Shown in pieces: positions 5,236-30,573 of a DNA stretch of 60,110 bases (position 1 is its first letter; each line of letters starts with the position of its first letter). The notes under the pieces were generated by a model. That model was not told the origin of the DNA, searched no databases, and saw nothing but the letters and a program-made list of their open reading frames with translations. Made by a program: the position numbers and the translations under genes. The DNA lies in contig JAWXAU010000163.1 in the NCBI GenBank assembly GCA_034439655.1, positions 1 to 60,110 on the forward strand. The letters run 5' to 3'. Source of the DNA: Bacteroidota bacterium (GTDB lineage Bacteria; Bacteroidota; Bacteroidia; UKL13-3).

Positions 5236-5950
5236 TCGCCGCGGCGGGGCAGCAGAGCAGCAGCAAGGAAAATTTCACAAAATAGCATATTGCCAATCAG
5301 CAGAAATCAAATCCGATAAGCGAAGTCGATGCTGTCGTTCCGACCGTGGTTTTTGCAAGATGCTTAACCGAATTCGCCACGGCGAAACTTGGGTAAATAA
5401 AAAAGCTTTTTGCTTCGTTTTTGGCTTCAAAAATGAAGCCCCGATAGTTATCGGAGTTCGCGGCGACCGAGGAGTGGAAAAAAGTATCGCTAAAATATAT
5501 AATACAAGCATGTCTTGAGTACATGTATCCCTCAATTACGAATTACGAATCTTCAATTATGAATTATCTTCACATATTATACCGACACTCAATATATAAT
5601 AGTCCAAAAAAGGGGGACTAATCCCCCCGCATCCCGATAATTATCGGGATTAAGCGGGGCTTTCGGGATGTAGTTCGGCATTACCTTTCTAAAAACTAAG
5701 CCGCCACAGGCGGAGAACTATTATAGTTTAAGAACTGGTATTAAGCACCATGTAACCCTGAGCGGCCCGCCGCGGCAGGGAAGGGTGGCTTAGTTACAAG
5801 ACGAAAGTATAAAGTATATATAATACGACTTCCCATTTCTAAAAGTAAAGAATAAATAAATATTATTATTTTGTTCCCCTTACTTCCTACTTCCCTTCGC
5901 CGCGGCGAACCTACTTCCTACTTCCTTCGCCGCGGCGAACCCACTTCCTA
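5236..5950. repeat. Dense cluster of short palindromes, REP-like hairpins and heptamer tracts
   Basis: CGCCGCGGCG 5237, TTCGCCACGGCGAA ~5373, hairpin 5413-5438, CCGATAGTTATCGG 5441, heptamers 5534-5568, 20-bp palindrome 5631-5650, CCGCCACAGGCGG 5701, REP-like 5752-5786, TTCGCCGCGGCGAA 5896 and 5926. Confidence 0.85.
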
Positions 5951-9305: not shown

Positions 9306-9371
9306 CCCGCCGCGGCGGGATTATTTTTTATTTTTCAAGTAGGCAGTTTGCTCACAACCCACAACTCACAA
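9306..9371. repeat. Perfect 14-bp palindrome CCCGCCGCGGCGGG plus heptamer tract CTCACAA/CCCACAA/CTCACAA
   Basis: Palindrome 9306-9319; heptamers 9351-9371 overlap the accD stop. Confidence 0.85.
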
Positions 9372-24691: not shown

Positions 24692-26176
24692 CTACTTTTC
24701 TAGTTTTTCTATAAGTTCTATTATAATTTTTTTATCGTCAAATTCATGTTTTACACCTGCTATCTCTTGATATGTCTCATGCCCCTTGCCTGCAAGAAGT
24801 ATAATATCCATAGGGTTTGCCATACTCACTGCTGTTTTGATGGCTTCTCTCCTATCTACAATACGAAGCGTTTTCTTATAATGTAATGCGGACACCCCTA
24901 CTTGCATTTGGTCAATAATTGTTTCTGGATTTTCATCTCTTGGATTATCCGAAGTAAATATTACTTTATCGCTCATCTCTGCTGCAACCTTGGCCATCAT
25001 TGGTCTTTTGCCTGCATCCCTATTTCCACCACAACCGATAATTGTATATAATGTTTCGTTACGGCTACGAATATCATTAATGGTTTGCAATACATTCTGT
25101 AGTGCATCGGGTGTATGGGCATAATCAATAATGGCCATGAGCTTTTTGGGCGACATGAAATAGTCAAACCTTCCAGTTACGCTGCCCAAATTGCTTAATG
25201 CTGTTATAATCTCTTCTTTGCTTTTTCCCAATAAAAATGCAACAGCATATACAGTTAATATATTATATGCATTAAACCTTCCAACAAGTCTATACCAAGC
25301 CTCTTCCCCGTCAATGTTTAATAATAAACCATTAAAATCACATTCAATAATTTTCGCTTTGAAATCGGCAGGGGCATTTAAGGCAAATGAATATTTTGCC
25401 GCCTTTGTATTTTGCACCATAATTGATCCATTACGATCATCTTTGTTATATAATGCAAATGCATCAATATCCAAATTATCAAATAATTTTTTCTTGGCTT
25501 TTATATAATTGTCAAATGTATGATGGTAGTCAAGATGGTCTTGGGTAATATTGGTAAAAGCTGCTCCAGTTATTGTCAATCCCGCAATCCTATTTTGCTC
25601 AATTGAATGGCTACTAGCTTCCATAAATACATATTCACAACCTGCGTCAACCATATCGGCCAACAATTTGTTTAAGGATATAGCATCGGGTGTTGTATGT
25701 GTAGCTGGAATTATTTGCTCGTTAATCTGATTTTGAACAGTTGATAAAAGGCCACAGGAATGACCCAGTTTAGTAAATAAATTAAACAATAAAGTGGCAC
25801 AGGTCGTTTTGCCATTGGTACCTGTAATAGCAACAAGTTTTAATTTCTCTGAAGGATTATTATAGAAGTTGGATGAAATTTGTCCGAGTGCTTCTGAAGT
25901 ATTATTAACTTGAATATATACAATACCCTCATTTATTACTTGAGGTATTTGCTCTACAACTATAATAACACATCCTTGCTCAATTACTTTAGGAATATAA
26001 TTGTGTCCATCTGTTTGAGTTCCTTTCACTGCAACAAACATCATATCTTTCAATGCTTTTCTACTATCAGAAACAATAGCAGAAACGGGCAAAGAAGTAT
26101 CTCCTACCACTTCGACAATATTTACATTCGATATGACCTCTTTTATAGTTTTCACTGATTTATTATATAAGTTCAA
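24692..26176 (-). CDS. murE: MurE ligase (meso-DAP adding)
   Basis: [26 protein letters not shown] specificity motif, GKGHETYQ. Confidence 0.97.
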
Positions 26177-28250
26177 TTACTACCGTGTTCCCCTTATATA
26201 TTCTAGTTCCTTTTTCGAGGCTTTGAAATTTCACTTTCCCTTTTTTGCCTACATACTGCACTTTCAAGCCTCTGTTTTCTAGCAAGTACAAGGCATCACG
26301 CAGTCCCATTCCCATTACATCAGGCATTTGATTATTGGGTGACACTTGCGTTTCTGTTATATTTATTTTAGTAGAATTGGTAGTGGCATTAGACCATTCT
26401 TGGGTACTGTATACTTTGGCTTTATTTTGGGTTACCTGATAAAAATCGCTGGTATAACCTGCGGTCTTAGTTATATAATTTATTTTATTCGTATCATGTA
26501 TATTTTCTGGCTCACGGTTCACTGAAGCAGCATATACTTTATCAGCAATTTCTTTAAATACTGGGCCTGCAACCAATGCTCCATAATATACACCATTGCT
26601 GGGTTTGAAAATCATGACCATGCAAGTATATTGAGGTTTGTCAGCAGGAAAAAAACCACAAAAACTGGATTTATATTTTTCTACATATTTGCCGCCCTCA
26701 ACTATCTGTGCTGTCCCAGTTTTACCTCCTATTGGATATATTTTCGACCGAATACTGGTAGCGGTACCGTGCTCCACAACTCCAGTGAGCATAGGCATTA
26801 CTCTCTGCAATGTTTTATCAGAGACTATTTTTTCTGATAATACTTCTGTATTATATTCTTTAATTAATTTACCAGTTTGCTCCACCCTTTTCACAAACAT
26901 GGGCTTTACCATTCTACCGTTGTTTGCTACTGCATTATATAAAGTTAAAATCTGCATAGGGGTCACCATGATGGCATACCCAATCGACATCCAAGGCAAG
27001 GTAGTTGAACTCCATTGTCTATCTTGTGGAGTAACTACTTTATATACTCTTTCATCGGGAAAACCAAGTTTCAAACTTTGACCAAACTTAAAATCATTGA
27101 CAAGTCTGTTCACAAATCTGCTTGGATTATTACTATAATACTTCCACACAAATTTGCTAATCCCCACATTGGATGAAAGTTCGAAAGCCTTCTGCAAGGT
27201 GAGCATTCCTTTGCCGCCATGCTCACTGTCACGCATCGTCCTGTCTCCATATGTTGTGGTACCATCTTCAGAAGAAACAGTTTCATTTTCATTTGCATAA
27301 CCATCCTCCAACAAAGCGAGTACTGAAGCTAATTTAAACGTACTTCCCGGTTCCGTAGCTTCGCTTATACTATAATTATCGGCCTCAATTACTTCATCAT
27401 TATCATTTCTTTTTAGGTTTGCAATTGCTTTTATTGCACCTGTATTAGTTTCCATTAATACCACACATCCGTAACTTGCTTTTTCTTTTATCAAAGCATT
27501 TTTTAAAGAATTCTCTGCAATGTCTTGTATACTCATATCAATGGTAGTATATATATCATATCCATTGTGTGGCTCTACATCATTATCATCGCTAATAGGT
27601 ATCCAATTTCCACCAACAATTTTTTGCATTAATCTCTTCCCTTCCCTGCCTTTTAATTCCTCATTATATGCAGCTTCCAAACCTATCCCTCTCTCGTTTT
27701 CTTTCTTTTGCCCAATGGTACGTATGGCTAACATCCCAAAAGGATTTTCACGTATGTCTTGTTCTTCAATCAGAATTCCGCCCTTGTTACGACCTAATCT
27801 GAATATGGGAAAATGCTTTACTTTTTTCAACTGGTCATAACTGATTTTTTTTAGCAATGGCACATATCTATCTGAACCTTTGCGTGCTTTATTTAATACA
27901 ACAAGATAATCTTTTCTGCTCTTTTCAGGATTTATATTCGCCAACATTAAAGCCAAGGAGTCAATGTTTTTTTTCCATATATCTTCGCTAAGTCCGCTGG
28001 CATGAGGATCCAACACTACATTATATATAGGAACAGAAGTGGCCATCAAACTACCATCGGCTGCATATATATTACCACGCATCGCAGAAATTGTGCGTAA
28101 TTCGGTAGTTTGCTCAGTTTGCATAGCCACCCACTTTCCACCTTCTACAAACTGAATTTTATAGGTATAATATAATATAACCGCTGCAAACGAAGCCATA
28201 AAAATAAAGCTTAGATAAACTCGGAGTAATATGATTTGCTTGTTAGTCAA
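26163..28250 (-). CDS. ftsI: Penicillin-binding protein FtsI with PASTA domain
   Basis: SxxK (STFK), SxN (SSN), KTG triad; terminal MPDVMGMGLRDA PASTA. Confidence 0.95.
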   Translation of the reverse strand: MTNKQIILLRVYLSFIFMASFAAVILYYTYKIQFVEGGKWVAMQTEQTTELRTISAMRGNIYAADGSLMATSVPIYNVVLDPHASGLSEDIWKKNIDSLALMLANINPEKSRKDYLVVLNKARKGSDRYVPLLKKISYDQLKKVKHFPIFRLGRNKGGILIEEQDIRENPFGMLAIRTIGQKKENERGIGLEAAYNEELKGREGKRLMQKIVGGNWIPISDDNDVEPHNGYDIYTTIDMSIQDIAENSLKNALIKEKASYGCVVLMETNTGAIKAIANLKRNDNDEVIEADNYSISEATEPGSTFKLASVLALLEDGYANENETVSSEDGTTTYGDRTMRDSEHGGKGMLTLQKAFELSSNVGISKFVWKYYSNNPSRFVNRLVNDFKFGQSLKLGFPDERVYKVVTPQDRQWSSTTLPWMSIGYAIMVTPMQILTLYNAVANNGRMVKPMFVKRVEQTGKLIKEYNTEVLSEKIVSDKTLQRVMPMLTGVVEHGTATSIRSKIYPIGGKTGTAQIVEGGKYVEKYKSSFCGFFPADKPQYTCMVMIFKPSNGVYYGALVAGPVFKEIADKVYAASVNREPENIHDTNKINYITKTAGYTSDFYQVTQNKAKVYSTQEWSNATTNSTKINITETQVSPNNQMPDVMGMGLRDALYLLENRGLKVQYVGKKGKVKFQSLEKGTRIYKGNTVVIELI

Positions 28251-28256
28251 TTGAAA

Positions 28257-28277
28257 AATTATGAGTGATGAATTATG
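28257..28277. repeat. Heptamer tract on the 3' side of the four-helix-bundle gene
   Basis: AATTATG AGTGATG AATTATG; inverted relative to the 28656-28676 tract. Confidence 0.75.
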
Positions 28278-28325
28278 AATATATAGATATTATTTTTTCA
28301 AGTTGTTCTTAGTAGTTAAAATGGA

Positions 28326-28658
28326 TCAGCGAATAATTTTCAAAAGCTCGCCCGCAGTGTTATTGCTTGTTTCATAGGGGGTGTTGTTTATAAAGTCTGT
28401 GGCTAGAATTAAATCCAACCAATAAATGGTTTCATCGCATTCCTTCTGAGCAATAGCCAACTTATGAATAAAATCTAATTTAGATTCTGCATTCTGAGCT
28501 TTTCTTACCAAGGCTCCAATAGCGGTGCCGCTTCTGAGTAATTGCCTACTCATCACAAACTCCTTCTTTTCAGTCGTTATGTACTTATATAATTTCACAA
28601 TCTCAATCGCAAATTCAAATGATTTTACTAGTAATATATTTTTCTTAATTTTTTCCAT
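28326..28658 (-). CDS. Four-helix-bundle protein (23S rRNA intervening-sequence protein / TIGR02436-like), apparently truncated by an in-frame TGA
   Basis: KSFEFAIEIVKLY, QLLRSGTAIGA, AESKLDFIHKLAIAQKECDETIYWL. The frame continues past TGA as SILTTKNNLKK to TAA at 28290. Confidence 0.88.
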   Translation of the reverse strand: MEKIKKNILLVKSFEFAIEIVKLYKYITTEKKEFVMSRQLLRSGTAIGALVRKAQNAESKLDFIHKLAIAQKECDETIYWLDLILATDFINNTPYETSNNTAGELLKIIR

Positions 28659-28690
28659 TCATCATTTATAATTTATCCCGCTGCGGCGGG
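28656..28690. repeat. Heptamer tract plus CCCGCTGCGGCGGG palindrome on the 5' side of the four-helix-bundle gene
   Basis: CATTCAT CATTTAT AATTTAT, then the 14-bp palindrome at 28677-28690. Confidence 0.8.
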
Positions 28691-28695
28691 CATCA

Positions 28696-29037
28696 TTATC
28701 TTATTATTTTCACTGGTGGTTCACTCAAGGGTTTTAACTCTGTATCCTTCAATCTGTTCAGCACTTCCGATTGTTTGCTTTTGCTCATTAATTCTTTAGC
28801 TATACTTATATACTCACTTCTTAGTTCTTTTTTTTCTGTAGTTAATCGGGCTATCTTCACTACTGCTTTATTGGCATAATGTTGATTGGCTATATATATC
28901 ATACCCAACAAAAACATATAGGAAATAAATGGCATCCACTTTTTTATATGTTCGGGAGTGATAAAAAAACTAAACTCCGAAAATTTAACCAATGGGCTTT
29001 TCCCGCTTTTCTCCTTATCTGTATTTGGTTGCTCCAT
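28696..29037 (-). CDS. ftsL: FtsL-like cell division protein
   Basis: One TM helix, YIANQH, coiled coil ELRSEYI..ELM..SKQSEV; position after rsmH. Confidence 0.85.
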   Translation of the reverse strand: MEQPNTDKEKSGKSPLVKFSEFSFFITPEHIKKWMPFISYMFLLGMIYIANQHYANKAVVKIARLTTEKKELRSEYISIAKELMSKSKQSEVLNRLKDTELKPLSEPPVKIIR

Positions 29038-30442: not shown

Positions 30443-30573
30443 CGAAGGTAAAACATTTTCCTCCACAAAAAACCACTAAAATCATTTTGTGGAAAAGTTT
30501 CAATCCTTTTTTTATCACAAATATAGCATATTTCTTTGTTTTACAATAATTTAAATATGGTGGAGTTATGTGG
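30443..30573. promoter_or_regulatory. dcw promoter region with 10-bp-spaced GTGG (MraZ-type) boxes and a DnaA-consensus box
   Basis: -7-like TACCTTCG at 30443-30450 (minus); CCAC at 30463 and 30473; TTTTCCACA at 30489-30497 (minus); GTGG at 30560 and 30570. Confidence 0.6.

Follow-up and report, generated by a model that had tools for sequence, protein, structure and literature searches.

A four-helix-bundle gene between inverted heptamer arrays in the dcw cluster of a Bacteroidota bacterium: an eroding cassette that resembles the intervening sequences of 23S rRNA

Introduction

In Coxiella burnetii, the intervening sequence (IVS) of the 23S rRNA carries an annotated S23p gene enclosed by a 28-bp stem with tandem GACAGAT heptamers (PMC4990558). 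RNase III cuts inside this stem, the number of heptamer units varies, and the open reading frame (ORF) is decaying and unexpressed (PMC4990558; Warrier et al. 2016); ORF-bearing IVSs in Leptospira and others are cited in the same paper (PMC4990558). Here we describe a gene of the 23S IVS family in a protein-coding operon. The DNA analyzed, referred to as the window, is the whole 60,110-nt stretch of contig JAWXAU010000163.1 from a Bacteroidota bacterium (assembly GCA_034439655.1), and positions without a contig name are window coordinates. In the division and cell wall (dcw) cluster of this genome, the junction between ftsL and ftsI is filled by a gene for a four-helix-bundle (4HB) protein together with the inverted heptamer arrays that flank it, a unit termed here the cassette. 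On balance, and with moderate confidence, we read it as an eroding IVS-like unit whose protein probably recognizes its own heptamer arrays.

The likeness to 23S IVSs covers several features. The inserts measure roughly 430 to 450 nt, with a gene of the 23S IVS family in the loop (PF05635 here, S23p by the annotation of the published report in Coxiella). In both, tandem heptamers in varying numbers make up part of the terminal inverted repeats, the ORF is deletion prone, and no enzyme is encoded; IVSs have been proposed to be selfish or mobile. However, the host site of the cassette is a stop-start junction in a protein-coding operon, not helix 9, 25, or 45 of 23S rRNA. Its stem is weak and bears no RNA-specific signature, whereas excision by RNase III is documented for IVSs, and, unlike the decaying and unexpressed Coxiella ORF, the 4HB proteins described below are under purifying selection.

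The protein also has the four-helix-bundle fold of Avd from the diversity-generating retroelement (DGR) of Bordetella phage BPP-1 (PDB 4DWL and 8UB7; TM score, 0.76). According to the PDB titles, Avd forms a pentamer within the DGR ribonucleoprotein, where it holds RNA and the reverse transcriptase; the entry of the closest solved relative of our protein, 2RLD, likewise contains five chains. In contrast to the DGR system, sequence identity to Avd is only 14%, the genome has no detectable reverse transcriptase, there are no template or variable repeats, and the 4HB gene stands alone between arrays.

Heptameric repeats comparable to those discussed here include the STRR repeats of cyanobacteria. 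Genome-wide heptamers have been reported from Xanthomonas, with 70 to 75 inverted pairs, and from Nostoc (Rehm et al. 2015, PMC4692102), and were read as G-quadruplex formers, with no mention of the 4HB/S23 family (PMC4692102). Like the tracts studied here, those are intergenic, have a period of 7, lie between codirectional genes, often form convergent inverted pairs, and vary in unit number; most are transcribed. The present arrays differ in being AT rich and unable to form a G-quadruplex, in enclosing a gene, and in having a sequence that follows the subfamily of that gene. A further likeness is to miniature inverted-repeat transposable elements and to repetitive extragenic palindromic (REP) sequences or bacterial interspersed mosaic elements with their REP-associated tyrosine transposases (RAYTs), all of them small, intergenic, multicopy inverted-repeat elements whose gene-less derivatives outnumber the gene-bearing ones. 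Unlike in those systems, no Y1 transposase was found in this genome and there was no sign of a duplicated target; in place of fixed terminal repeats, the arms are heptamer arrays that vary in length, and the sole encoded protein is a small helical bundle without a known catalytic motif.

To our knowledge, the very large PF05635/TIGR02436 family includes solved structures and has no known function apart from the Avd protein of DGRs, the origin and mobility of 23S rRNA IVSs have been open since 1990, and published work has remarked on the excess of heptameric tandem repeats in bacteria but has not explained it. The locus and its relatives link these three puzzles and make them testable. Our literature searches turned up no account of 4HB genes enclosed by inverted heptamer arrays in any setting other than rRNA; the cassette class is IVS-like and was not found described for protein-coding operons.

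Results

Organization of the junction and strength of the arms. On the coding strand, the junction runs from the ftsL stop codon (TAA) through TGATG, the GC-rich palindrome CCCGCCGCAGCGGG (28690 to 28677), the heptamers, the ORF, a 45-nt spacer, and the 3' arm to AA and the TTG start codon of ftsI. The arms thus lie tightly against the host genes, the 5' arm beginning at the ftsL stop and the 3' arm ending 2 nt upstream of the ftsI start. The last three bases of the 5' arm (ATGAATG) are the start codon of the 4HB gene, which is the only ORF inside the cassette. On the plus strand, CATTCAT CATTTAT AATTTAT occupies 28656 to 28676 and is followed by CCCGCTGCGGCGGG (28677 to 28690), while the other side reads AATTATG AGTGATG AATTATG (28257 to 28277). 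A sequence-only reading of the window had reported a non-dcw 4HB gene at the ftsL-ftsI junction, with the GC palindrome and inverted heptamer tracts beside it; the sequence, coordinates, and identity of the gene were all as claimed, and the tracts and palindrome were present at the positions given.

The inverted repeat is formed by positions 28253 to 28273 and 28657 to 28677, two arms of 21 nt with 18 complementary positions that lie 383 nt apart. Tandem Repeats Finder recognized the 3' tract only (period 7, 3.4 copies, 76% matches). When the duplex energy was computed with 110-nt flanks, random loops averaged -31 kcal/mol and AT-rich arms were invisible, so an ungapped complementarity score was used instead. 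The arms reached a score of 12 (16/18), which was attained by none of 200 shuffles and by 0.25 to 0.5% of 400 control loops from the same genome. Taken alone, the arm signal of this copy is significant but modest; what makes the observation strong is that paralogues and homologues show the same layout.

The arm-gene-arm layout recurs, and the arm sequence follows the protein subfamily. The genome under study (G000) contains 11 matches to PF05635 at 10 loci. In nine of these, judged by eye, tandem heptamers stand upstream and their reverse complement stands downstream; the heptamer differs from locus to locus. The other three species of genus g1 (G001 to G003, sister species of G000) have six, seven, and eight matches with the same layout, which in all encloses the majority of the 32 copies known from the genus. 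Over the genus, 13 of 31 copies scored at least 12, compared with at most 0.5% of control loops, and near-perfect flank periodicity was found at period 7 in 9 of 31 loci (0.7% of random loci) and never at period 5, 6, 8, or 9. Inverted heptamer flanks around the paralogues, on which the sequence-only reading had staked its proposal, are therefore present.

The layout also extends beyond the genus. The 79 closest homologues in other genomes (55 to 70% identity to the 4HB protein) come mostly from Bacteroidota (Chitinophagales, Sphingobacteriales, Flavobacteriales, and Bacteroidales), with a few from Ignavibacteria/Kapaibacteria. Flanking inverted repeats with a score of at least 12 surround 51 of them, compared with none of 296 in-locus controls, and the arms of these 51 cassettes belong to the same ATRARTT heptamer family as those of the ftsL-ftsI copy (TTATGAG, TTATGAA, TTATAAG, GTGATGA); at one such locus, L079, they are almost identical to them. 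A second 4HB subfamily, taken from metagenomes, is armed at 42 of 76 loci with other heptamers (AAGGAGT, AAGGCGT, AGTAGTC). Sharing of arm 5-mers was 0.9 within a subfamily versus 0.4 between subfamilies, and the arm family tracked the protein subfamily over 55 to 77% protein identity. Thus, the comparisons indicate an arm sequence that is subfamily specific and conserved across orders of Bacteroidota; where copies of a single genome have unlike arms, it is because their proteins fall into different subfamilies. At these protein distances, synonymous sites have approached or passed saturation, so the conservation of the arm sequence implies a constraint on the motif itself.

The arms have a median length of 26 nt and lie close to the ORF, with median distances of 6 nt upstream of the ATG and 3 nt downstream of the stop, and they often cover both of these codons. 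Within the genus, the 32 copies are spread over at least 17 different sites, few of them common to three or more species. Genes that are sisters in the protein tree but stand at nonorthologous sites have arms in common, as in L004 and L050 (AATTACG), L005 and L055 (AATTGAT), and sites 6 and 11 (AAGGAAT). Because arms follow the subfamily, sister genes elsewhere share arms, and the proteins are under purifying selection, gene and arms form one inherited, occasionally relocated unit.

The encoded protein. The 4HB ORF matched PF05635 (E = 2.4e-22; 79.6 bits; cutoff, 33.8) and TIGR02436 (E = 1.7e-23; 82.9 bits; cutoff, 24), and its closest solved relative was 2RLD from Bacteroides thetaiotaomicron (E = 3.9e-33). 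An AlphaFold2 model built from 45 homologues (pLDDT, 94.7) predicted helices at residues 8 to 30, 36 to 55, 60 to 86, and 92 to 109. With this model, Foldseek retrieved 2RLD (TM score, 0.92), Xcc0516/2GSC (0.82), and both Avd structures (about 0.76), the Avd match having a probability of 1.00; the predicted fold is thus like that of the solved PF05635 members. Membership in the 23S IVS family and resemblance to Avd, both stated in the sequence-only reading, were confirmed by the profiles, the 2RLD match, and Foldseek. Searches of PADLOC and PHROGs with the protein gave no match.

The protein retains the invariant residues Q39, R42, and E76; its C terminus is about 10 residues shorter than in its relatives, and it forms a long branch in the protein tree. 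Orthologous 4HB pairs had dN/dS values of 0.03 to 0.17 at dS values of 0.24 to 0.87, which shows purifying selection. In-frame stops were present in 5 of the 32 copies of the genus, and several copies are truncated.

Origin and decay of the ftsL-ftsI copy. The ftsL-ftsI junction was located in 35 related genomes. Only one of them has an intact 4HB gene there, and an insert of any kind occurs only in genus g1; in the other genera, where no 4HB gene was detected at this junction, ftsL and ftsI are separated by 11 to 30 nt, or by about 85 nt in one genus. The gene is thus foreign to the dcw cluster, as had been proposed, and is not stably syntenic there. No cassette was found at this junction among 80 homologous loci. 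In three other public assemblies, the cassette is identical, at the same site, and without polymorphism.

The three sister species show different states of the junction. In G002, it measures 140 nt and has a pair of heptamer arms complementary at 22 of 25 positions, which enclose a segment collinear with the 5' arm and the first 27 or so codons of the cassette; the alignment of this interior to the cassette scores 35, compared with a maximum of 33 in 300 shuffles. In G001, it measures about 300 nt and is made up of a 5' arm and a short remainder of the ORF, followed by a 3' array that has grown to roughly 27 TTAACCA/TCAACAA units. Both spacers are thus collinear remnants that keep complementary arms. 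The junction of G003 measures only 16 nt, of which 11 are identical to part of the 3' arm of the cassette. In a tree of MraZ, RsmH, FtsL, and FtsI (915 residues), G000 was sister to G001 to G003 (support, 100/99). It follows from this topology and from the remnants that the cassette was present in the ancestor of the genus and decayed in three different ways. It lies in sense orientation, with no recognizable promoter or terminator of its own, and the gene-less states in the sister species are demonstrably derived from the gene-bearing one by deletion. Cassettes therefore decay by internal deletion, leaving arm-only heptamer tracts. The alternative that the "empty" dcw and pntA-pntB sites are ancestral was rejected, since each retains a stretch resembling the 3' arm.

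The ftsL-ftsI copy is old and eroding, as judged from arms that are complementary at only 18 of 21 positions, a foreign palindrome within one arm, the loss of the C-terminal tail, and the loss of the gene in three sister species. At the start of the 5' arm, G002 and G001 read TAATGATTAATGAT... and TAATGACTGATTG..., with no palindrome; its absence from these orthologous remnants indicates that it entered the arm later.

Insertion sites, transcription, and candidate enzymes. The pntA-pntB junction, examined in 23 genomes (L143 to L165) since G001 to G003 carry a cassette there, is a repeated landing site. The g1 clade has a cassette with ATTCTAA arms, and the one in G009 and G010 belongs to a different 4HB subfamily and has other arms; heptamer tracts without a gene are found in G006, G007, G012, and G030, which represent four further genera, and most other genomes have 6 to 46 nt. 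The arms of a cassette at pntA-pntB can be strong, with 30 of 31 positions complementary. By comparison of these junctions, two 4HB subfamilies were inserted independently in different genera. In total, 26 of 30 copies lie in sense orientation downstream of a codirectional gene, a count that overstates the sample because orthologous copies are not independent.

Neither a -7 box of the Bacteroidota type (TAnnTTTG) nor a terminator was found inside the cassette, and the closest box of this type in the proper orientation lies upstream of mraZ (30518 to 30525). A scan for sigma-70 promoters, a type that is not the right one for Bacteroidota, gave nothing above shuffles. The cassette is probably cotranscribed with the dcw genes by read-through. 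No match to reverse transcriptase (PF00078) or Y1 transposase (PF01797), the only mobility families searched, was found in the draft genome, which is 96.8% complete. DGR activity, retromobility in cis, and a REP/RAYT system were accordingly rejected for this genome.

Changes in arms and exchange between copies. Arms undergo slippage and inversion. They expand on one side only, with 3' arrays that reach more than 20 units; the 3' array of L058, at pntA-pntB, goes beyond this number. A cassette between convergent genes in G000 (C197:4013-4282, L008) has the opposite orientation relative to its flanks in G002 (L056), as expected from recombination between inverted arms. The G003 paralogues L047 and L051, which share AAGGAAT arms at different sites, differ from each other by a dS of 0.49, compared with 0.74 and 0.82 to their orthologues in sister species, which suggests gene conversion or recent copying between sites. 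At another locus, a cassette lies upstream of a gene in G000 (C61:1622) and G003, while the G002 counterpart (L046) is displaced by about 1.8 kb to the downstream side of that gene; at the position of L046, all that G000 (C61:3406-3443) shows is an array of the same heptamer family with no gene. It seems that the 4HB gene has moved between neighboring arrays.

Period-7 arrays in the genome. Strong tandem arrays of period 7 numbered 106 in G000, compared with 24, 10, 3, and 0 for periods 5, 6, 8, and 9, and none was found in a Markov-shuffled megabase. Many of the heptamers share an AGT or CGTA core (AGTAGAC, AGTAAAC, AGTAAGG, CGTAATT, CGTACAT). The sequence-only reading had taken the scattered heptamer tracts for footprints of the cassette. 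Some can indeed be traced to lost genes, as at the dcw junctions of G001 and G002, but as a general statement this was overstated, with 106 arrays against about 10 genes.

Discussion

Under the reading favored here, the cassette would be read through within the dcw transcript, and an oligomer of the 4HB protein would bind the cassette's own heptamer arrays, either as a DNA hairpin or cruciform or as RNA. Host replication or recombination at hairpins, rather than an enzyme encoded by the element, would keep up the protein-repeat pair and from time to time copy it to new gene junctions. Binding to its own arrays is the most likely role of the oligomer because of the subfamily-tied conservation of the motif, the Avd-like fold of a nucleic acid scaffold, and the purifying selection on the proteins. 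We infer every step beyond that of one inherited, insertable unit. Of the earlier proposal of a minimal, transposase-free mobile unit, the recurring unit stands, as does the lack of reverse transcriptase and Y1 domains; a movement event was not seen.

Several observations weigh against this reading. The interaction between protein and repeat is purely our inference, and linkage alone could explain part of the correlation between arm and subfamily. No transposition event or recent identical copy was seen among the copies compared, the closest of which differ by a dS of at least 0.24. No direct repeat or target duplication is visible at the dcw and pntA-pntB junctions, where both "empty" sites may be deletion scars. 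An enzyme could have been missed, given a 96.8% complete draft, contigs broken by repeats, and two families searched. Some cassettes have the order A-gene-A-apex-A' instead of A-gene-A', where A is an array and A' its inverted counterpart. The period-7 arrays are many, of many families, and mostly without a nearby gene. The energy of the arm duplex (-25.7 kcal/mol) was not above that of shuffles (-22.1 ± 4.0 kcal/mol), and the terminal stem was absent from both the minimum-energy and the centroid fold of the 466-nt transcript (z = -1.5).

The last two results also bear on the explanation that the cassette behaves as an IVS at the RNA level, the arms pairing and RNase III cutting the stem so that the 4HB message is released or destroyed, with selection acting on the RNA stem. 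The architecture is like that of ORF-bearing IVSs such as the heptamer-containing stem of Coxiella (PMC4990558), most cassettes stand in sense orientation behind a codirectional gene, and the arms hug the ORF to the point of covering its start and stop codons. Yet in the folded cassette the 3' arm pairs with a heptamer-like sequence inside the ORF. Over 76 armed loci, arm mismatches in the sense RNA comprised 48 G:U-type and 74 A:C-type pairs, with no trace of wobble tolerance. Arm registers shifted by 7 or 14 nt scored 81% of the best register, while out-of-phase registers were at background, which indicates that the arms are inverted arrays of one motif rather than a helix tuned base pair by base pair. 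Moreover, the arm sequence is conserved beyond mere complementarity, and a cut would break an essential operon apart between ftsL and ftsI-murE. A scan of four 4HB loci, that at ftsL-ftsI included, gave no match in Rfam. We regard this explanation as unlikely, and the proposal that the arms pair to loop the gene out of the transcript, the least supported step among the earlier claims, is not supported in view of the missing stem, the lack of a G:U excess, and the multiple registers. A primacy of the repeats was also weighed, in which heptamer hairpins would spread through host processes and the 4HB gene would be a passenger, either carried along or received later. It would account for the surplus of arrays over genes, for gene-less hairpins of different heptamer families that keep a common tip motif (GCCATTCGGC..GTCAGC), for the cassettes of the A-gene-A-apex-A' order (at one such site, G000 has A-apex-A'), and for the gene-less heptamer tracts at pntA-pntB in several genera. 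Against it, the arm family tracks the protein subfamily and sister genes elsewhere carry the same arms, the arms abut the ends of the ORF, and the gene-less dcw states are derived by deletion; we hold it to be quite improbable.

A domesticated regulator, in which arms, protein, or both tune ftsI through translational coupling, attenuation, or mRNA stability, would fit a cassette kept in G000 since before the split of the genus, with an intact ORF and identical sequence in the three other assemblies, and the tight fit of the arms against the ftsL stop and the ftsI start. However, the cassette is missing in every other genus and was lost in three ways in three sister species, none of the homologous cassettes lies at a dcw junction, and the protein is long branched and has lost its C-terminal tail, all of which makes such a role very unlikely. 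The simplest alternative, an ordinary accessory gene beside a chance inverted repeat in an AT-rich spacer with no cassette at all, is consistent with the shortness, AT richness, and insignificant energy of the repeat; it is effectively refuted by the ungapped score, by the same motif family around the majority of the homologues, and by the complementary arms kept in the orthologous remnants.

If the eroding, array-recognizing unit favored here is generalized, PF05635 proteins would recognize their own heptamer arrays in a sequence-specific manner and, with them, make up a widespread enzyme-less mobile or self-maintaining class residing in transcribed stop-start junctions. The IVSs of 23S rRNA would be its rRNA-resident members, and much of the period-7 excess would be its arm-only debris or nonautonomous derivatives. 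This wider proposal is tentative, and we consider it doubtful. The covariation of arm and subfamily predicts a specific protein-repeat interaction, and the proteins are under selection despite looking like the cargo of a selfish insert. Should the interaction be true, it would represent a new kind of small genetic element with programmable proteins that bind 7-nt repeats; should it be false, the cassette still marks turnover at an operon junction and warns against assigning such genes to the host operon during annotation. In either case, one junction of an essential operon offers an allelic series of intact, deleted, arm-only, and scar states.

Genomic context and other repeats

The features of the junction are collected in Table 1. 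The dcw cluster lies on the minus strand, with mraZ (30418 to 29951) and rsmH (29954 to 29046) upstream of ftsL and murE (26176 to 24692) downstream of ftsI.

Table 1. Positions of the cassette, its parts, and the flanking host genes
Feature	Position	Strand	Remarks
Cassette, whole	28251..28695	-	445 nt; fills the ftsL-ftsI junction: 5' arm, nested GC palindrome, 4HB ORF, 45-nt spacer, 3' arm
ftsL, flanking host gene outside the cassette	28696..29037	-	PF19579 FtsL_2, 4.4e-28
5' arm, beginning (TGATG)	28691..28695	-	Directly after the ftsL stop codon; split from the remaining arm by the GC palindrome
GC palindrome CCCGCCGCAGCGGG	28677..28690	.	Nested in the 5' arm; one copy of a distinct mini-palindrome found genome-wide
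5' arm, main part	28656..28676	-	Coding strand ATAAATT ATAAATG ATGAATG; inverted repeat I1
4HB gene, 110 aa	28326..28658	-	PF05635/TIGR02436
3' arm	28253..28280	-	Coding strand ATTCATA ATTCATC ACTCATA ATTTTTC; inverted repeat I1/I2; Tandem Repeats Finder period 7
ftsI/PBP3, flanking host gene	26163..28250	-	PF00905, PF03717, PF03793 (transpeptidase, PBP dimer, PASTA)

The apparent TTG start codon of ftsI at 28250 aligns with the ATG starts of other genera, the N terminus being aligned from residue 1. In three public assemblies, gene callers took an ATG 17 codons downstream, which gives 678 aa instead of 695 aa (window positions 28199 to 28250).

The core of the GC palindrome, CGCCGCGGCG, and its close variants have about 200 matches in the 3.5-Mb genome, a number in which overlapping patterns count some sites twice. 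The copies are usually extended to 14 to 18 nt, and 19% of the matches, versus 0.6% of random positions, fall within period-7 tracts. This suggests that the palindrome family behaves as an independent, REP-like mini-element with a preference for heptamer arrays. Further sites in the window include 5900 to 5945, 713 to 722, and 9306 to 9319.

Gene-less hairpins with differing heptamers have a common tip, GCCATTCGGC(AG), 0 to 50 nt, (G)GCGTCAGC. They were seen in G000 at C4:12526, C9:11262, C28:4088, C42:4472, C43:1825, and elsewhere, and at loci L046 to L054. In L056 and L057, both tip boxes stand just inside the arms and flank a 4HB gene, and one gene-less hairpin has its tip motif in opposite orientations in different species. 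The tip may be a leftover of the deletion of a 4HB gene.

A repeat of about 70 nt (...CCCCCCGCATCCCGATAATTATCGGGATTAAGCGGGGCTTTCGGGATGTAGTTC...), with no match in Rfam, breaks contigs; it occurs in the window at about 5600 to 5680, at the ends of C114 and C168, and at C90:36160-36220. One 4HB gene is interrupted by this repeat (C114/C168), and a further 4HB pseudogene has it immediately at its 3' side. A group II intron was considered as the contig-breaking repeat beside these two genes and was rejected, since the element measures only about 70 nt and is also present in the window.

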